Assembly: GCA_017686895.1 (NCBI GenBank)
Contig: GCA_017686895.1_4521.1
Direction: 5' to 3' (one strand)
DNA: 64,000 nucleotides
Source: a phage
Within the stretch, counting starts at the first letter, position 1. Each line of letters starts with the position of its first letter. The notes under the pieces were generated by a model. It saw only the letters and a list, made by a program, of their open reading frames with translations, had not been told where the DNA came from and did no database searches. The position numbers and the translations under genes were made by a program. Shown here piece by piece: positions 614 to 43,196 of this stretch.

Positions 614-1129
614 ATGAATATTTGTTTAGGCAGTACAATCCCTAAAGGTTACGTAATTGATGTCACTACTTCGGAAAATGACGGCGACAACTATAAAACC
701 AAAACATTATTTGGTGTAGAAGAGCATGAGCTCCAACAGTTTAAATATCTCTTGAAGAAATTTAAGAGTCGTCATTCTAGCACTAAAGCTGAACGTTACT
801 GTGGTAATACACCATTCAGTGATTGCTCGCTTATTATCTACGAATATCTGGTTGAAGGACTGTTCTCAGACCATCTTTATCCAGAATTCATTAAAAAGGT
901 CTTTGATATTGAAGTTGACCTCGGTAATAAATCTGAAGAAGACGAATCACGTGTATTTGACCTGTTCCGTGAGAATGGATATTTAGTATCAGAAGGTCTC
1001 ATTGATATTCTTGGCCATGCTTCCGAATATTATGATTATGATTTCTTGCGTGTAGTTGAATGTGTTGAATTTGCTTATATTGAAGAAGAAATCGTTTTGC
1101 CGACTGTTAAAATGATTGATTTGCTTTAA
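614..1129 (+). CDS. hypothetical protein
   Basis: 171-aa ORF, ATG start 4 nt after upstream stop; acidic C-terminal half; no motif recognised. Confidence 0.5.
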   Translation: MNICLGSTIPKGYVIDVTTSENDGDNYKTKTLFGVEEHELQQFKYLLKKFKSRHSSTKAERYCGNTPFSDCSLIIYEYLVEGLFSDHLYPEFIKKVFDIEVDLGNKSEEDESRVFDLFRENGYLVSEGLIDILGHASEYYDYDFLRVVECVEFAYIEEEIVLPTVKMIDLL

Positions 1130-1208
1130 GAATTATGTGTTATTATTAATTCATACCCTCTATTACCAAAGGTGCTCTAAAGTGCCTTTCATAATAGAAA
1201 GTTATTTA

Positions 1209-1282
1209 GGCCCTGTAGCTCAATGGTTAGCAGCAGTCCCCTCATAAGGGAAAGGTTACCAGTTCGAATCTGGTCCGGGTCA
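1209..1282 (+). tRNA. tRNA with CAU anticodon (Met or lysidine-type Ile)
   Basis: Hand-folded cloverleaf: acceptor GGCCCTG/CCGGGTC (one mismatch), anticodon loop CTCATAA, T-arm ACCAG-TTCGAAT-CTGGT; T4 also has a CAU tRNA next to tRNA-Arg. Confidence 0.7.
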
Positions 1283-1288
1283 TATATT

Positions 1289-1365
<77 letters not shown>

Positions 1366-1383
1366 ATTATAAGTGAGGAAAAT

Positions 1384-1728
1384 ATGAAAGGCAATATTTA
1401 TTTGGTAGTTCATGATTTAACGTTTTATTTTAATGAATATGATACAGTTATTTCTCATCGATTGATTAATTCACTTTATCAGCATGCCGATTACATCTAT
1501 GTTCAAAATGAATTCGGACATTGGAAGTTCATTAAAAACCGTTCAGGGTTAACTAGTTTTGAATACTTTGATCGTAAAGACCTTTTAAACGAAATCCCAT
1601 TGCAACATCGGTTTCAGAAACGTGAATCATTATATTATTGCCGTCATATACCAAACGCCGAATGTGTTAATGAAGCGATTAATCTATGGCGTCGGCGTCG
1701 AGAGCAAATTGATGATATGCCAAAATAA
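1384..1728 (+). CDS. hypothetical protein
   Basis: Track ORF 1336..1728 starts at TTG inside the tRNA; internal ATG at 1384 follows RBS GTGAGGAA. Confidence 0.5.
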   Translation: MKGNIYLVVHDLTFYFNEYDTVISHRLINSLYQHADYIYVQNEFGHWKFIKNRSGLTSFEYFDRKDLLNEIPLQHRFQKRESLYYCRHIPNAECVNEAINLWRRRREQIDDMPK

Positions 1729-37431: not shown

Positions 37432-37657
37432 CTATGAAATCCATCGTCACGAATTTAGTATTGGTGACGGTTATATTGGTATCGTTGAATGGACTGAGAA
37501 TTACGAGGAATCAACTCCTCGTTTCTTTGGAACAATGTATGTTACCTGTGAGTACGCACCAGGTGTTGTTATGTATGCAGAACTAGATGAATATTTTGCT
37601 GATAGGGATGACATGTTAAAATATGTAGAGGACTTCACTCGAAGAGAATACATATGA
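37418..37657 (+). CDS. hypothetical protein
   Basis: ATG 37418 after GAGGA RBS. Confidence 0.45.
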   Translation: MTKTDYEIHRHEFSIGDGYIGIVEWTENYEESTPRFFGTMYVTCEYAPGVVMYAELDEYFADRDDMLKYVEDFTRREYI

Positions 37658-39342
37658 AATCATTTAAATTAAATCGTGTTCGTTATCAAAACATCATGTC
37701 GGTAGGTGGGAATCCTATTGATATCCAATTAGATAAAGTCCAAAAGACATTAATCACTGGTAAAAATGGTGGTGGTAAATCTACGATGTTAGAAGCCATT
37801 ACTTTCGGACTTTTCGGTAAACCATTTCGTGATGTTAAGAAAGGACAAATCATTAATAGCACGAACAAGAAAGAGCTCTTAGTTGAGCTTTGGATGGAAT
37901 TCGATGATAAAAAATACTTCATTAAACGAGGCCAAAAGCCCAATATTTTCGAAATCTCCGTTGACGGTGTTCGTCTTGATGAATCTGCCAGCAGTCGTGA
38001 CTTCCAAGAAGAATTTGAACGTAGCATCGGAATGTCATACGCGTCTTTTAAACAGATCGTTGTGCTTGGGACGGCAGGGTATACCCCTTTCATGGCTCTT
38101 AGCACCCCTGCTCGCAGAAAGCTTGTTGAAGACTTATTAGAAGTTGGAACACTAGCTGAAATGGATAAAATCAATAAGTCTCAAGTTCGAGAACTTAATT
38201 CCCAGGGACAAGTTCTCGATGCCAAGAAAGATGGTATTATCCAACAAATTAAGATTTATAACGAGAATATCGAGCGTCAAAAGAAATTATCTGGCGATAA
38301 TGTAGCGCGTCTACAGAATATGTATGACGACCTAGCCAAAGAAGCTCGTTCATTAAAGGCTGAAATCGAAGAAGCTAATGAGCGTCTACTTAATATCGTT
38401 CTTGACGAAGACCCTACTGAGGCATTCAACAAGATCGGACAAGAAGCATTCTTGATTAAATCTAAAATTGACTCATATAACAAAGTTATTAAGATGTATC
38501 ATGATGGCGGTACATGTCCTACTTGTGCATCACAGTTGCACCAGGGTGATCCTATTGTCTCTAAGATTACCGATAAGCTTCATGAATGTAATCACTCATT
38601 CGAGCAACTTACCTGCCACAGAGATAATCTGAGTGTCCTAGTGGACGAATATAGAGCTAATGTTAAGACTAAGCAGGACCTTGCATCTGATATTCGTACC
38701 AAGAAACAAGCAATGATTGCCACTATTGATAAAGCTAAGAAAGTTAAAGCTGCAATAGAACAAGCCTCGGCGGAATTTATCGACCATGCCGATGAGATAG
38801 CTTTGCTTCAAAAAGAACTTGATAAAATCATTAAAACAAAATCGGATATCGTTCTTGAAAAATACCATCGTGGTATTATCACAGATATGTTAAAAGATTC
38901 TGGTATTAAAGGTGCTATCATTAAAAAATATGTGCCTCTGTTCAACAAGCAGATTAACCATTACCTTAAAATCATGGAAGCTGATTACGTGTTTTCTATT
39001 GACGAAGAATTCAATGAATCTATAAAATCACGTGGCCGTGAAGAGTTCAGTTATGCTTCATTTAGTCAAGGCGAAAAAGCGCGTATCGATATCGCATTGT
39101 TGTTTACATGGCGAGATATTGCTGAAAAGGTCTCTGGTGTTAGAATCAATACATTAATTATGGACGAAGTCATGGATTCCGCGACTGATTCTGAAGGTAT
39201 TAAAGCTATTTCAACAATTCTTAACTCTCTAACCGATGCAAACGTGTTTATAATTAGTCACAGAGACCATGACCCACAAGCTTATGGACAACATCTTCAA
39301 ATGAGCAAAGTTGGACGATTTACTGTAATGACTGTTTCATAA
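37654..39342 (+). CDS. 46: recombination nuclease subunit gp46 (Rad50/SbcC-like ATPase)
   Basis: Walker A GKNGGGKST, zinc hook CPTCAS, C-terminal signature and D-loop region; 562 aa. Confidence 0.95.
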   Translation: MKSFKLNRVRYQNIMSVGGNPIDIQLDKVQKTLITGKNGGGKSTMLEAITFGLFGKPFRDVKKGQIINSTNKKELLVELWMEFDDKKYFIKRGQKPNIFEISVDGVRLDESASSRDFQEEFERSIGMSYASFKQIVVLGTAGYTPFMALSTPARRKLVEDLLEVGTLAEMDKINKSQVRELNSQGQVLDAKKDGIIQQIKIYNENIERQKKLSGDNVARLQNMYDDLAKEARSLKAEIEEANERLLNIVLDEDPTEAFNKIGQEAFLIKSKIDSYNKVIKMYHDGGTCPTCASQLHQGDPIVSKITDKLHECNHSFEQLTCHRDNLSVLVDEYRANVKTKQDLASDIRTKKQAMIATIDKAKKVKAAIEQASAEFIDHADEIALLQKELDKIIKTKSDIVLEKYHRGIITDMLKDSGIKGAIIKKYVPLFNKQINHYLKIMEADYVFSIDEEFNESIKSRGREEFSYASFSQGEKARIDIALLFTWRDIAEKVSGVRINTLIMDEVMDSATDSEGIKAISTILNSLTDANVFIISHRDHDPQAYGQHLQMSKVGRFTVMTVS

Positions 39343-39344
39343 AC

Positions 39345-39368
39345 GCTTTAACATGATGTGGTTATAAT
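39345..39368 (+). promoter_or_regulatory. promoter with GCTTTA box and TATAAT inside a palindrome (approximate coordinates)
   Basis: GCTTTA, 12 bp, TATAAT flanked by GATGTGGT / ACCACATC. Confidence 0.4.
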
Positions 39369-39396
39369 GACCACATCAAATTAAATGGAGAACAAC

Positions 39397-39585
39397 ATGG
39401 AGTATTCAACCGGACAACATCTTCTTGTTGTCCCTGAAATTAAAAAATATGTTTTGACCAATATGTTTTCAGGTGAAGAACATATTGTTACTGAACAAAT
39501 GCTCAAATCTGCTTTTAAAGATGAGTATAATAAAATAATGTCTAATCGCAATTCCGCATGGACAGTTACCGACTTCTACGAATAA
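39397..39585 (+). CDS. hypothetical small protein
   Basis: ATG 39397 after ATGGAGAA RBS. Confidence 0.45.
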   Translation: MEYSTGQHLLVVPEIKKYVLTNMFSGEEHIVTEQMLKSAFKDEYNKIMSNRNSAWTVTDFYE

Positions 39586-39597
39586 GAGAGAAATAAT

Positions 39598-40014
39598 ATG
39601 TTTACTACTGCTAAAGGTTTTACCGCTGCTGATCTGAAAGTTACTTCTATCCGTACTGACGCTAACCCGCATAACCATAATCGTGTTCGTAAAGCATGGG
39701 TCCTGCATTGTGATGACGCAAGTGCTAAAAAGCTTCAATCTTTGCCACAAGAAACTCGTTTTATGATTTATGGTTTTATTGATAACGATGTATCTGATAT
39801 GTGGATTCATCTGATGCGTAAGCACTATAAAGATTCTATTGAAGCAGGTGGAAAAATCGTTCTTGATAAAGATGGTTCTGAGCGCCTGGAAGATTTCTAC
39901 TGTGTTGATGCCGACGAACAATTAATTGCAGCTGGCGAAATTGTTGCTTCTAAAATTCCAGAATATATTGAATCACTGCCTGAAGCTATTAAAAAGCAGA
40001 TGGTCGCTGCTTGA
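39598..40014 (+). CDS. rpbA: RNA polymerase-binding protein (assigned by position)
   Basis: 138-aa ORF between 46 and 45, where T4 has rpbA; sequence identity not verified. Confidence 0.5.
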   Translation: MFTTAKGFTAADLKVTSIRTDANPHNHNRVRKAWVLHCDDASAKKLQSLPQETRFMIYGFIDNDVSDMWIHLMRKHYKDSIEAGGKIVLDKDGSERLEDFYCVDADEQLIAAGEIVASKIPEYIESLPEAIKKQMVAA

Positions 40015-40019
40015 TAATT

Positions 40020-40910
40020 ATGAATTTAATATATCTTATAACCTTTTATAATCGTGAGATTAAAAATGAATACCCGTGTTATTATATAGGTTCTAAAGTT
40101 TCGTGTCATTTTAATGGAAAGGATATTATTGAAGATTCTACCGGTAAAATATATACCGGTAGTGTTAATTCCTCGTATTCTCCTTTATATAACAGATTAA
40201 TAGACCAAGGCGAATATTCTGTAAAAATTTTAGGCGAAACCACATTAGACCCTAGAAGAATAGAAAGACTATTCCAACTCAATGTTAAAGCCGTTTCAAA
40301 TGAAAAATATTTTAATAAGGCTTATGCTAACGAGAAGTCTAGAATATCAGCTAAAGGATATGCACCGTATAAAAATTTAAAAACAGGCAAAATAGTAAAA
40401 CTTTCTAAAAACGAAATAAACGAAGATTACGTCGGTGTTAGAAAAAATTGCAAATTGTCGGAGAATCATTTAAACGCAATTAGAGAATTTCAAAAAACAT
40501 ATTGGACCAAAGAACGAAGAGAGAAAGTTTCTATTCGTTCTAAAAAAATGTTTAACGATAGAGATTTTGCTTTAAAATTTAAAGATATAATGAATTCTCC
40601 TAATGTTAAAGATAAAATAAAAATATCTAAAACATTGTATTGGTCTAAACCTGAAAATAGAGCAAAGGCCTCTATCGCAGCTTCGAAAAGAAATGCAACC
40701 AAAGAATTTAAGGATAAATTCAGAAAATCTAAAGCTAGAGGTACATGGATATTTCATGAACAAAAATTAAAGGAATTGTGGATTGCTTTAGGAAAACCAA
40801 GTTATATTACATTTAGAAAACATGCAATTCAGCATGGTTTTAATGATGAATCATACCAAGGTGCTATCCGGTCTTGGACAAATTATTATGCTAATAGGAA
40901 ACCTAAATGA
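40020..40910 (+). mobile_element. free-standing GIY-YIG homing endonuclease gene (seg-like)
   Basis: N-terminus MNLIYLITFYNREIKNEYPCYYIGS gives the GIY-(10 aa)-YIG spacing; Lys-rich C-terminal DNA-binding region; markedly AT-rich; inserted between rpbA and 45. Confidence 0.6.
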
Positions 40911-41593
40911 AACTTAGCCGTGAAACCGTAAATATTCTGAAAAACTTCGCTTCTATTAACTCTGGCATTCTGCTGAGTCAAGGTAAATTTATTATGACTC
41001 GTGCAGTTAATGGCACCACTTATGCGGAAGCAAATATCTCTGATGAAATTGATTTTGACGTAGCACTTTATGATTTGAATAGCTTCTTAAGCATTTTGAG
41101 TCTAGTGTCTGACGATGCTGAAATTTCAATGCACACTGATGGTAATATTAAAATTGCAGACACACGTTCCACAGTTTATTGGCCTGCCGCTGACAAGAGC
41201 ACCATTGTTTTTCCTAATAAGCCAATTCAATTCCCAGTGGCTTCTGTGATTACTGAAATTAAAGCCGAAGACCTTCAACAATTGCTTCGAGTTTCACGTG
41301 GTCTTCAAATTGATACAATTGCTATTACAAATAAAGATGGTAAAATTGTTATCAATGGCTATAATAAAGTTGAAGATTCTGGACTAACTCGTCCTAAGTA
41401 TTCTTTGACTCTTACCGATTATGATGGTTCTAACAACTTTAACTTCGTAATCAATATGGCTAATATGAAAATCCAGCCAGGTAACTATAAAGTAATGTTG
41501 TGGGGAGCTGGTGATAAAGTTGCAGCCAAGTTTGAAAGCTCTCAAGTAAGTTATGTTATTGCAATGGAAGCCGATTCTACTCACGACTTCTAA
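40907..41593 (+). CDS. 45: sliding clamp gp45
   Basis: 228 aa; MKLSRETVNILKNFASINSGILL ... matches T4 gp45. Confidence 0.95.
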   Translation: MKLSRETVNILKNFASINSGILLSQGKFIMTRAVNGTTYAEANISDEIDFDVALYDLNSFLSILSLVSDDAEISMHTDGNIKIADTRSTVYWPAADKSTIVFPNKPIQFPVASVITEIKAEDLQQLLRVSRGLQIDTIAITNKDGKIVINGYNKVEDSGLTRPKYSLTLTDYDGSNNFNFVINMANMKIQPGNYKVMLWGAGDKVAAKFESSQVSYVIAMEADSTHDF

Positions 41594-41668
41594 GTCAAAG
41601 CTTTACGTTTAATGTAGTACGATTATGGAGGAGAAATCCTCCAGATTAATGATAATGAGGAAAATTAC

Positions 41669-42631
41669 ATGATTACTATCAATTCCAAAGAACACATTCT
41701 AGAACAGAAATATCGTCCTTCTTCCATTGACGAATGTATTCTGCCTGCGTATGACCATGAAACATTCAAGTCTTTAGTATCTAAAGGAAAACTTCCTCAT
41801 ATTATTTTGCACTCTCCTTCTCCTGGTACCGGTAAAACAACCGTAGCAAAAGCATTATGTAATGATATCAATGCCGAAATGATGTTCGTCAACGGCTCTG
41901 ATTGTAAGATTGATTTTGTGCGTGGTCCGTTAACTGCATTCGCTCGTTCAGTCTCAATGGAAGGCAAGCCTAAAGTTATTGTTATTGATGAATTCGACCG
42001 TAGTGGTCTCGCCGAATCACAACGTCACCTTCGTACGTTTATGGAAGAATTCTCTAGTAACTGCTCTATTGTTATTACTGCTAACAACATCGATGGAATT
42101 ATTGAACCATTACGTAGTCGTTGTCGAGTTATCGAATTCGGACGTCCAACCGAAGAAGATAAAATCTCGATGATGAAGAAAATGATTCATCGTATGGTTG
42201 AAATCTGTAAGAACGAAAATATCGAAATCGCTGATATGAAAGTTGTTGCAGCTCTGGTTAAAAAGAACTTCCCGGACTTTCGTCGCACAATCGGCCAATT
42301 AGACCAGTACTCGTCTAAAGGTGTTCTTGATGCAGGTATTCTGTCTATCGTAACTAATGATCGTGGCACAGTCTCTGATGTTATTGAAGCAATGAAGAAC
42401 AAAGATATCAAACAACTTCGTGCATTAGCTCCAAAATATGCTGCAGATTATTCATGGTTCATCGATAAATTAGTTTCAGAATGTTACGACCAAGTTGCAC
42501 CTGGTAAAAGTATTATTTCGCTTTACGAAATTGCAGGCGAAAATAATAAGTTTCATGGACTAGCAAGTAATATTGAATTACATGTTATGTATATGCTTCT
42601 TCAACTGACCTGTGAACTGACTTGGAAATAA
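41669..42631 (+). CDS. 44: clamp loader large subunit gp44
   Basis: Walker [11 protein letters not shown], Walker [12 protein letters not shown] motif LRSRC. Confidence 0.95.
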
Positions 42632-42632
42632 T

Positions 42633-43196
42633 ATGAACTTATTCGATGATGACGTCCAGCTTAACGAGCACCAAATTGCATGGAAGTCTAATGACGCTGA
42701 TGCGATTCAAAAATGTGCTGATATGTTTAAAGAAAAACCTGAGAATGAATTCTTTAAAATCATTAATGCTATTAATGAAAAGAAATCTATGTCAATTGCT
42801 CAGGTCGACTACTCAAAATTTATGGTTGAGAACTCATTATCCCAGTTTCCAGAATGTATGCCAGCTGTTTACATGATGAACTTAGTCGGTTCTGAATTAA
42901 GCGATGAAGCGCACTTCAACTATATGATGGCGGCAATTCCGCGTGGTCGTCGATTCTCTAAATGGGCTAAACTAGTCGAAGACACTTCAGAGTTACTAGT
43001 TATCAAACTGTTGATGAAACATTACACAATCAACATGAATGACGCCACTGAGTATAAGCGGCTCCTTGAAAAAAATAACAAGTTGCCAATAGTCCTTAAA
43101 GAACTGAAGGCCATGGTCACTGATGAATTTCTCAAAGAAGTTACCAAAAACGTGAAAGAACAAAAACAATTTAAAAAATTAGCATTGGAATGGTAA
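42633..43196 (+). CDS. 62: clamp loader small subunit gp62
   Basis: 187 aa; [19 protein letters not shown]... resembles T4 gp62. Confidence 0.9.

Follow-up and report, generated by a model that had tools for sequence, protein, structure and literature searches.

The question raised by this locus is what kind of gene lies between rpbA and gene 45, the sliding-clamp gene, of a T4-like phage, and whether that gene moves between phages. The window, that is, the whole stretch of 64,000 nucleotides that was analysed, is an RB69-like T4-family phage (Mosigvirus), and its nearest records are ~98.7% identical to it across 39385-41600. The gene and its neighbours are arranged as follows.

37654-39342: gene 46, upstream of the endonuclease gene
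39385-39585: 45.2, upstream of the endonuclease gene, with an unambiguous Pfam assignment
39598-40014: rpbA, directly upstream of the endonuclease gene (Pfam Phage_RpbA, 5.6e-48)
40020-40910, plus strand: putative free-standing homing endonuclease gene of 296 aa (ATG at 40020, TGA at 40908-40910)
40907-41593: gene 45 (sliding clamp), directly downstream (Pfam gp45-slide_C, 1.2e-44)

Genes 44, 62 and regA follow past gene 45. The coordinates and the Pfam matches of both neighbours confirm the placement between rpbA and gene 45 that a preliminary description of this DNA had proposed, and the gene order is interrupted, as that description also held: at the same position, RB69 has a 42-bp and T4 a 55-bp spacer. 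Its remarks on composition hold as well. The reading frame has 29.2% GC, compared with 39.1% in rpbA, 36.5% in gene 45 and 36.9% in the whole window, and the protein is rich in lysine (42 of 296 residues), with Lys and Arg making up 25% of its C-terminal half. The gene is a separate intergenic reading frame, borne neither by an intron nor by an intein. Its ATG lies 5 nt past the rpbA stop codon with no clear Shine-Dalgarno sequence there, its TGA overlaps the gene 45 ATG (ATGA), and the start M-N-L-I/V-Y is kept among its orthologues. With a probability of roughly 80%, judged from sequence comparison, we regard the gene as a two-part free-standing homing endonuclease, a SegG-type nuclease joined to a lineage-specific basic helical DNA-binding domain, that has been inserted precisely between rpbA and gene 45.

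The identity of the enzyme depends on its N-terminal half, for which all seg proteins of the T4 genome were compared with the endonuclease reading frame. T4 SegG is 38% identical to the N-terminal 136 aa (blastp E 8e-15), and a profile built from 53 relatives matches T4 SegG at 1.7e-36. PHROG 7504 ('homing endonuclease') matches aa 1-137 at 2.6e-16. On these comparisons, the nuclease domain and T4 SegG are homologous. The two parts of the protein are delimited as follows.

40020-40430, plus strand: SegG-type GIY-YIG nuclease domain, N-terminal (aa 1 to ~137), with key residues Y5, R12, Y22-I23-G24-S25-K26, Y45, E82 and N99
40452-40907, plus strand: basic all-helical region (aa 145-296; AF2 secondary structure), the presumed DNA-binding or specificity domain

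The motif spacing needs a correction. A 'GIY-(10 aa)-YIG' arrangement had been read from the translation; LIY and YIG are in fact 16 residues apart, the layout being L3-I4-Y5, 16 residues and then Y22-I23-G24, and the spacing in T4 SegG is identical. The canonical gap of ~10-11 residues is thus replaced by one of 16 residues with a short helix that bears the conserved R12. This long gap is a trait of the subfamily and no ground for exclusion from the GIY-YIG superfamily. Y22, I23, G24, S25, Y45, E82 and N99 are invariant in all 53 relatives; Y5 (51 of 53), P19, K26 (52 of 53) and F98 are nearly so, and R12 is found in 45. As in the superfamily at large, the 'GIY' tyrosine Y5 lies on the first strand (E2-8) of the AF2 model and 'YIG' on the second, and E82 and N99 are the equivalents of the metal-binding Glu (E75) and of Asn (N90) of I-TevI. 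The column equivalent to R27 of I-TevI is not conserved in the 53-sequence alignment (E in 16, R in 5 and others); the window has R60 on the first helix and the orthologues are without it. The conserved basic residues R12 and K26 could substitute for an arginine of the R27 type.

Profile libraries gave little help with this domain. Pfam and NCBIfam scans of the endonuclease reading frame returned no GIY-YIG match even at E<=1, and only two of the 53 relatives matched SegE_GIY-YIG, weakly. PDB sequence searches with profiles of 5 and 53 sequences detected no GIY-YIG structure, and hhalign of the family against full I-TevI aligned the NUMOD3 region alone and not the catalytic domain. Since no Pfam or NCBIfam model matches, the assignment rests on SegG homology, residue conservation and the predicted fold. 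That fold is of the GIY-YIG alpha/beta type, and its closest counterparts are GIY-YIG nucleases, the catalytic domain of I-TevI among them. In a Foldseek search of the PDB, I-TevI (1ln0) came first, at a score that was not significant, and the Foldseek matches among viral structure models (BFVD) were SegG, gp32.1 and other NUMOD3/GIY-YIG homing endonucleases.

T4 SegG (gp32.1), the free-standing GIY-YIG homing endonuclease encoded between genes 32 and 59, is therefore the natural standard of comparison. The two enzymes share the 16-aa gap, Arg12, the YYIGSK sequence, the Glu and the YFN motif. Like segG, the window's gene would be a cassette without a promoter that is read with its neighbours, and each of the two stands immediately before an essential replication gene, with expression signals for that gene within the endonuclease gene or at its end (PMC2988022). 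SegG has been reported as an active free-standing GIY-YIG endonuclease with gene 32 as its target, and gene 32 promoters are embedded inside segG (PMC2988022). In contrast to SegG, which has 210 aa, the protein of the window has 296 aa with a dissimilar C-terminal half, and its locus (rpbA/45) and presumed target differ from the 32/59 locus of SegG. The T4 td intron endonuclease I-TevI (1LN0, catalytic domain; 1I3J, DNA-binding domain) is further removed: it is intron-encoded, it has a GIY-YIG spacing of 9-10 aa and a conserved R27, in both of which the window's protein differs, and its catalytic domain shows no sequence-level match to the nuclease domain described here. The family profile weakly matches SegA, SegE, I-TevII, SegC, SegB and SegD across the Y-x-GS, Glu and Asn motifs, with p ~1e-6 for SegA and SegE. 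SegA, SegB, SegC, SegD and SegE share the free-standing lifestyle of the window's gene, but they have the canonical short spacing, occupy other loci and are much more distant from it than SegG.

The C-terminal half has a different history of matches. Beyond aa 136, no similarity to T4 SegG was detectable. Two degenerate repeats of the NUMOD3-like form W(T/S)xExRxKxS occur in this half, which ends in a three-helix bundle; hhalign aligned aa 151-180 to the NUMOD3 region of I-TevI at 73% probability. The profile of the relatives matches the I-TevI DNA-binding domain 1i3j at 9e-5, a match made through the NUMOD3 motifs that 37 of the 53 relatives bear. The last 32 aa are 44% identical to the C-terminus of SegA, which is a weak match. 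When 1.84 billion representatives were searched exhaustively with HMMER, the family had 246 relatives (E<=0.001), among which only ~2 clusters (at 50% identity) cover the C-terminal half. Hardly any other gene therefore shares this half, and a modular endonuclease would be expected to have a specificity module of just that kind.

The distribution of the gene was examined in 154 Mosigvirus records, defined as flank matches at 95-99% identity. Only 10 of them bear the insert (JM17, FL18, FL31, AV109, AV111, AV114, AV115, AV116, AV118 and G2285), and the remainder, including RB69, have the 42-bp spacer. A conserved copy in all related phages would have pointed to a resident gene, as the preliminary description noted, and the rpbA-45 junctions show the reverse, most of them being insert-less. 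As is characteristic of free-standing homing genes, the gene is sporadic among close relatives and occupies one specific site. Outside this genus, tblastn brought the number of phage records with a full-length copy to 38; the 28 copies outside Mosigvirus are 58-63% identical, and the annotation under almost all of these 28 matches names rpbA and/or the sliding clamp. Three metagenomic orthologues (63, 60 and 49% identity) occupy exactly the same site with the same overlapping stop and start codons, and one of them lies on a backbone 97% identical to T4.

Sequence variation among the carriers differs between the insert and the DNA around it. Segregating sites among eight carriers number 6 in 954 positions of the insert plus the gene 45 patch described below, 31 in 413 of rpbA and 23 in 627 of the rest of gene 45 (Fisher p for the insert, 2.6e-14 against the left flank of 45.2 and rpbA, and 2e-5 against the rest of gene 45). 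Diversity in the insert is thus roughly a tenth of that in its flanks, and on both flanks it is non-carriers that come closest to the window. A near-uniform insert on diverse backbones indicates, as far as sequence comparison can tell, recent horizontal spread and not inheritance with loss. The view that this is a mobile seg-type element is accordingly strengthened by five lines of evidence: the SegG homology, the sporadic presence in 10 of 154 records, the low diversity on mixed backbones, the orthologues at the same site and the rewritten start of gene 45.

That rewritten start became visible when the two junctions were read from anchored extracts, which were used because a MAFFT alignment of carriers and non-carriers had misplaced the spacer and the patch inside the insert. 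The junction features are as follows.

40011-40019, plus strand: left junction, where the insert takes the place of the 42-bp rpbA-45 spacer, and where the third base of the last rpbA codon and the stop codon read GCT TGA, compared with GCA TAA in phages that lack the insert
40915-40932, plus strand: carrier-specific patch in codons 3-9 of gene 45, with 13 nt changed; candidate recognition or cleavage site

At the start of gene 45, all eight carriers aligned read ATGAAACTTAGCCGTGAAACCGTAAAT and all six non-carriers aligned read ATGAAACTGTCTAAAGATACTATCGCT, so that the patch occurs in 8/8 carriers and 0/6 non-carriers. The protein begins MKLSRETVNIL in carriers and MKLSKDTIAIL without the insert; compared with all insert-less relatives sampled, the carrier sliding clamp has the four N-terminal substitutions K5R, D6E, I8V and A9N. 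Synonymous changes at 40948 and 40951 are linked to the patch. A 60-nt query of the carrier allele matches exactly the 10 insert-bearing records, and two insert-less phages have just its distal synonymous variants. No other fixed difference between carriers and non-carriers was found in 37885-43100 (~2 kb on each side). A patch at the same codons separates the T4-type carrier from T4. Over its first 22 nt, gene 45 of T4 agrees fully with that of RB69, both phages being insert-less, and each of the four carrier lineages departs from this sequence. Other carrier lineages have a gene 45 start similar to the patch (MKFSRETLNIL; SRET..N). The divergence of the patch, 13 of 18 nt, is far above the 2-3% of the backbone, and the patch was therefore most likely imported together with the endonuclease gene by co-conversion.

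The preliminary description had suggested that the element may cut the homologous site in related phages. The gene 45 start, rewritten in carriers only, supports such a target; we infer that insert-less phages are recognised or cut at the spacer and the start of gene 45, and that carriers would be protected jointly by the patch and the interruption. The cleavage site need not be the patch itself, by analogy with T4 free-standing endonucleases, which frequently cleave at a distance of hundreds of bp from the gene that encodes them (PMC2988022).

A further variable stretch lies on the other side of rpbA. The 3' end of gene 46 (39085-39284), which adjoins the 46/45.2 junction, is hypervariable among the Mosigvirus loci (pi 0.08-0.14), with a divergence of up to 0.22 between carriers and non-carriers. 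At the 46/45.2 junction, FL31 and G2285 have an extra minus-strand reading frame of 238 aa that is absent from the window; it is located at 702-1418 (minus strand) in loci L008 and L012, and the FL31 annotation calls it a 'homing endonuclease'. A Pfam scan of this FL31 reading frame was uninformative. The 46/45.2 junction may be a second homing site with a co-conversion scar of its own.

Expression signals for gene 45, most of them candidates, lie in or beside the insert.

39945-39969, plus strand: middle-promoter-like motif at the 3' end of rpbA, common to RB69
40568-40591, plus strand: second candidate embedded middle promoter (TGCTTTA-N11-TATAAT), kept in two of the four orthologues
40784-40808, plus strand: TGCTTTA-N12-TATATT, a candidate embedded middle promoter of the MotA-box type for gene 45; all four orthologues have the motif
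40896-40901, plus strand: AGGAAA, 5 nt upstream of the ATG, serving gene 45 as Shine-Dalgarno sequence and formed by the last endonuclease codons AAT AGG AAA (N-R-K)

Within the Shine-Dalgarno sequence, all four orthologues retain the rare AGG codon, and the end of the gene is unusually conserved, third positions being identical in four of the last six endonuclease codons. For transcription, motifs resembling T4-type middle promoters (TGCTT-N13-16-TAnnnT) number 38 in the window against 15.6 expected. A transcript covering both gene 45 and the endonuclease gene may start from the motif at the 3' end of rpbA; T4 has a similar motif in its spacer, which in T4-type carriers has given way to the insert. 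The two embedded motifs may be replacement middle promoters for gene 45, in parallel with segG, a role proposed here with caution because coding constraint and an AT-rich codon bias could explain their conservation. No T4 late promoter (TATAAATA) was found in or near the insert, and a sigma-70 promoter scan gave fewer sites than shuffled sequences. Folding of the RNA at the start codon, tested for a translation-blocking hairpin, was not significant (z = -1.07). A terminator-like perfect 9-bp hairpin at 40138-40162 inside the reading frame (CTACCGGTA...TACCGGTAG) was set aside as probably due to chance because it is absent from the orthologues.

Taken as a homing endonuclease gene, the insert would act in the following way. 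With apparently neither a promoter of its own nor a strong ribosome-binding site, it would be read from the upstream rpbA/45 transcript. In a mixed infection, the protein would bind the rpbA-45 junction or the gene 45 start of an insert-less relative and make a double-strand break there, and phage recombination would repair the break from the carrier, so that the gene and the adjacent rewritten start of gene 45 are copied in. The carrier itself would escape cutting, since the insert interrupts its site and the site has been rewritten, as the 13 changed nucleotides observed in codons 3-9 illustrate. The cost to the phage would be minimised by the last codons of the insert, which are observed to recreate the gene 45 Shine-Dalgarno sequence, and the insert may bring replacement middle promoters.

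The state of the individual copies bears on whether such homing still takes place. The copies in the window, FL31, AV109, AV114, AV116 and AV118 are intact, and those in JM17, FL18, AV111, AV115 and G2285, five of the ten database copies, are apparently frameshifted. In the four of these that were aligned (all but FL18), the indels of JM17, AV111, AV115 and G2285 all lie in A-runs, with A-homopolymer frameshift positions at window 40491, 40541-40542 and 40619; they may be sequencing errors or an early decay driven by slippage. The gene might consequently be an inactive, decaying relic that no longer homes, kept because its deletion would remove the gene 45 Shine-Dalgarno sequence and possibly a promoter. 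The frameshifts in half of the database copies, the Shine-Dalgarno sequence in the last codons, the promoter-like motifs inside the reading frame and the missing R27-equivalent arginine would all suit a relic. However, the window's copy and five database copies are intact, the indels seen in A-homopolymers may be no more than errors of sequencing, orthologues of 49-63% identity keep full-length frames and catalytic residues, and so little variation in the insert across different backbones points to recent spread. We consider a relic improbable.

It is a very unlikely alternative that the gene serves mainly in competition between phages, by cutting competitor genomes, or as a regulator that binds the gene 45 leader, with its own spread secondary. 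Two observations would accord with such a role: the presumed target extends into the region where translation of an essential replication gene begins, and in T4 x T2 crosses Seg endonucleases bring about marker exclusion (PMC2988022). Nothing, however, sets the gene apart from ordinary homing in this respect, and the two are inseparable because exclusion is a by-product of the same cut. That the gene is an ancestral T4-like resident, lost by deletion in most lineages and never mobile, is scarcely credible: it would explain the same position in several genera, but not the conserved functional spacer without a deletion scar in insert-less genomes, the foreign GC content, the homology of the protein to endonucleases, the roughly ten-fold lower diversity of the insert than of its flanks on backbones nearest to non-carriers, or a patch (13/18 nt) too diverged to have arisen in place on a backbone that is 2-3% diverged.

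The homing endonuclease reading thus places the gene as an ordinary and apparently undescribed member of the well-known free-standing seg class. The literature searched held no description of an rpbA/45 endonuclease and no paper with both 'rpbA' and 'GIY-YIG'. A bolder idea, which we hold only tentatively and think unlikely as a whole, is that SegG-type enzymes, including this one, are a distinct GIY-YIG active-site variant in which the helix arginine is dispensable and its role is taken by Arg12 on the expanded GIY-YIG hairpin, or by Lys26, and that the element may target the translation-initiation region of the sliding clamp. If this were true, each homing event would replace the clamp leader, the Shine-Dalgarno sequence, possibly a promoter and four N-terminal residues, and the element would be hard to delete and would drive variation of the clamp gene.

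In most respects, the gene is what a phage biologist would expect in a T4-like genome. Beyond that, the SegG-type domain is missed by the current Pfam and NCBIfam models, so that such genes are deposited as 'hypothetical protein', and the C-terminal half could give a new DNA-binding specificity module for engineered GIY-YIG nucleases. For the T4 family, the catalogue gains a putative free-standing seg endonuclease with a new insertion site (rpbA/45). Carriers and non-carriers that are ~98% identical and differ by the insert and a 13-nt patch in an essential replication gene constitute a natural experiment, which makes the target site and the determinant of immunity directly testable.
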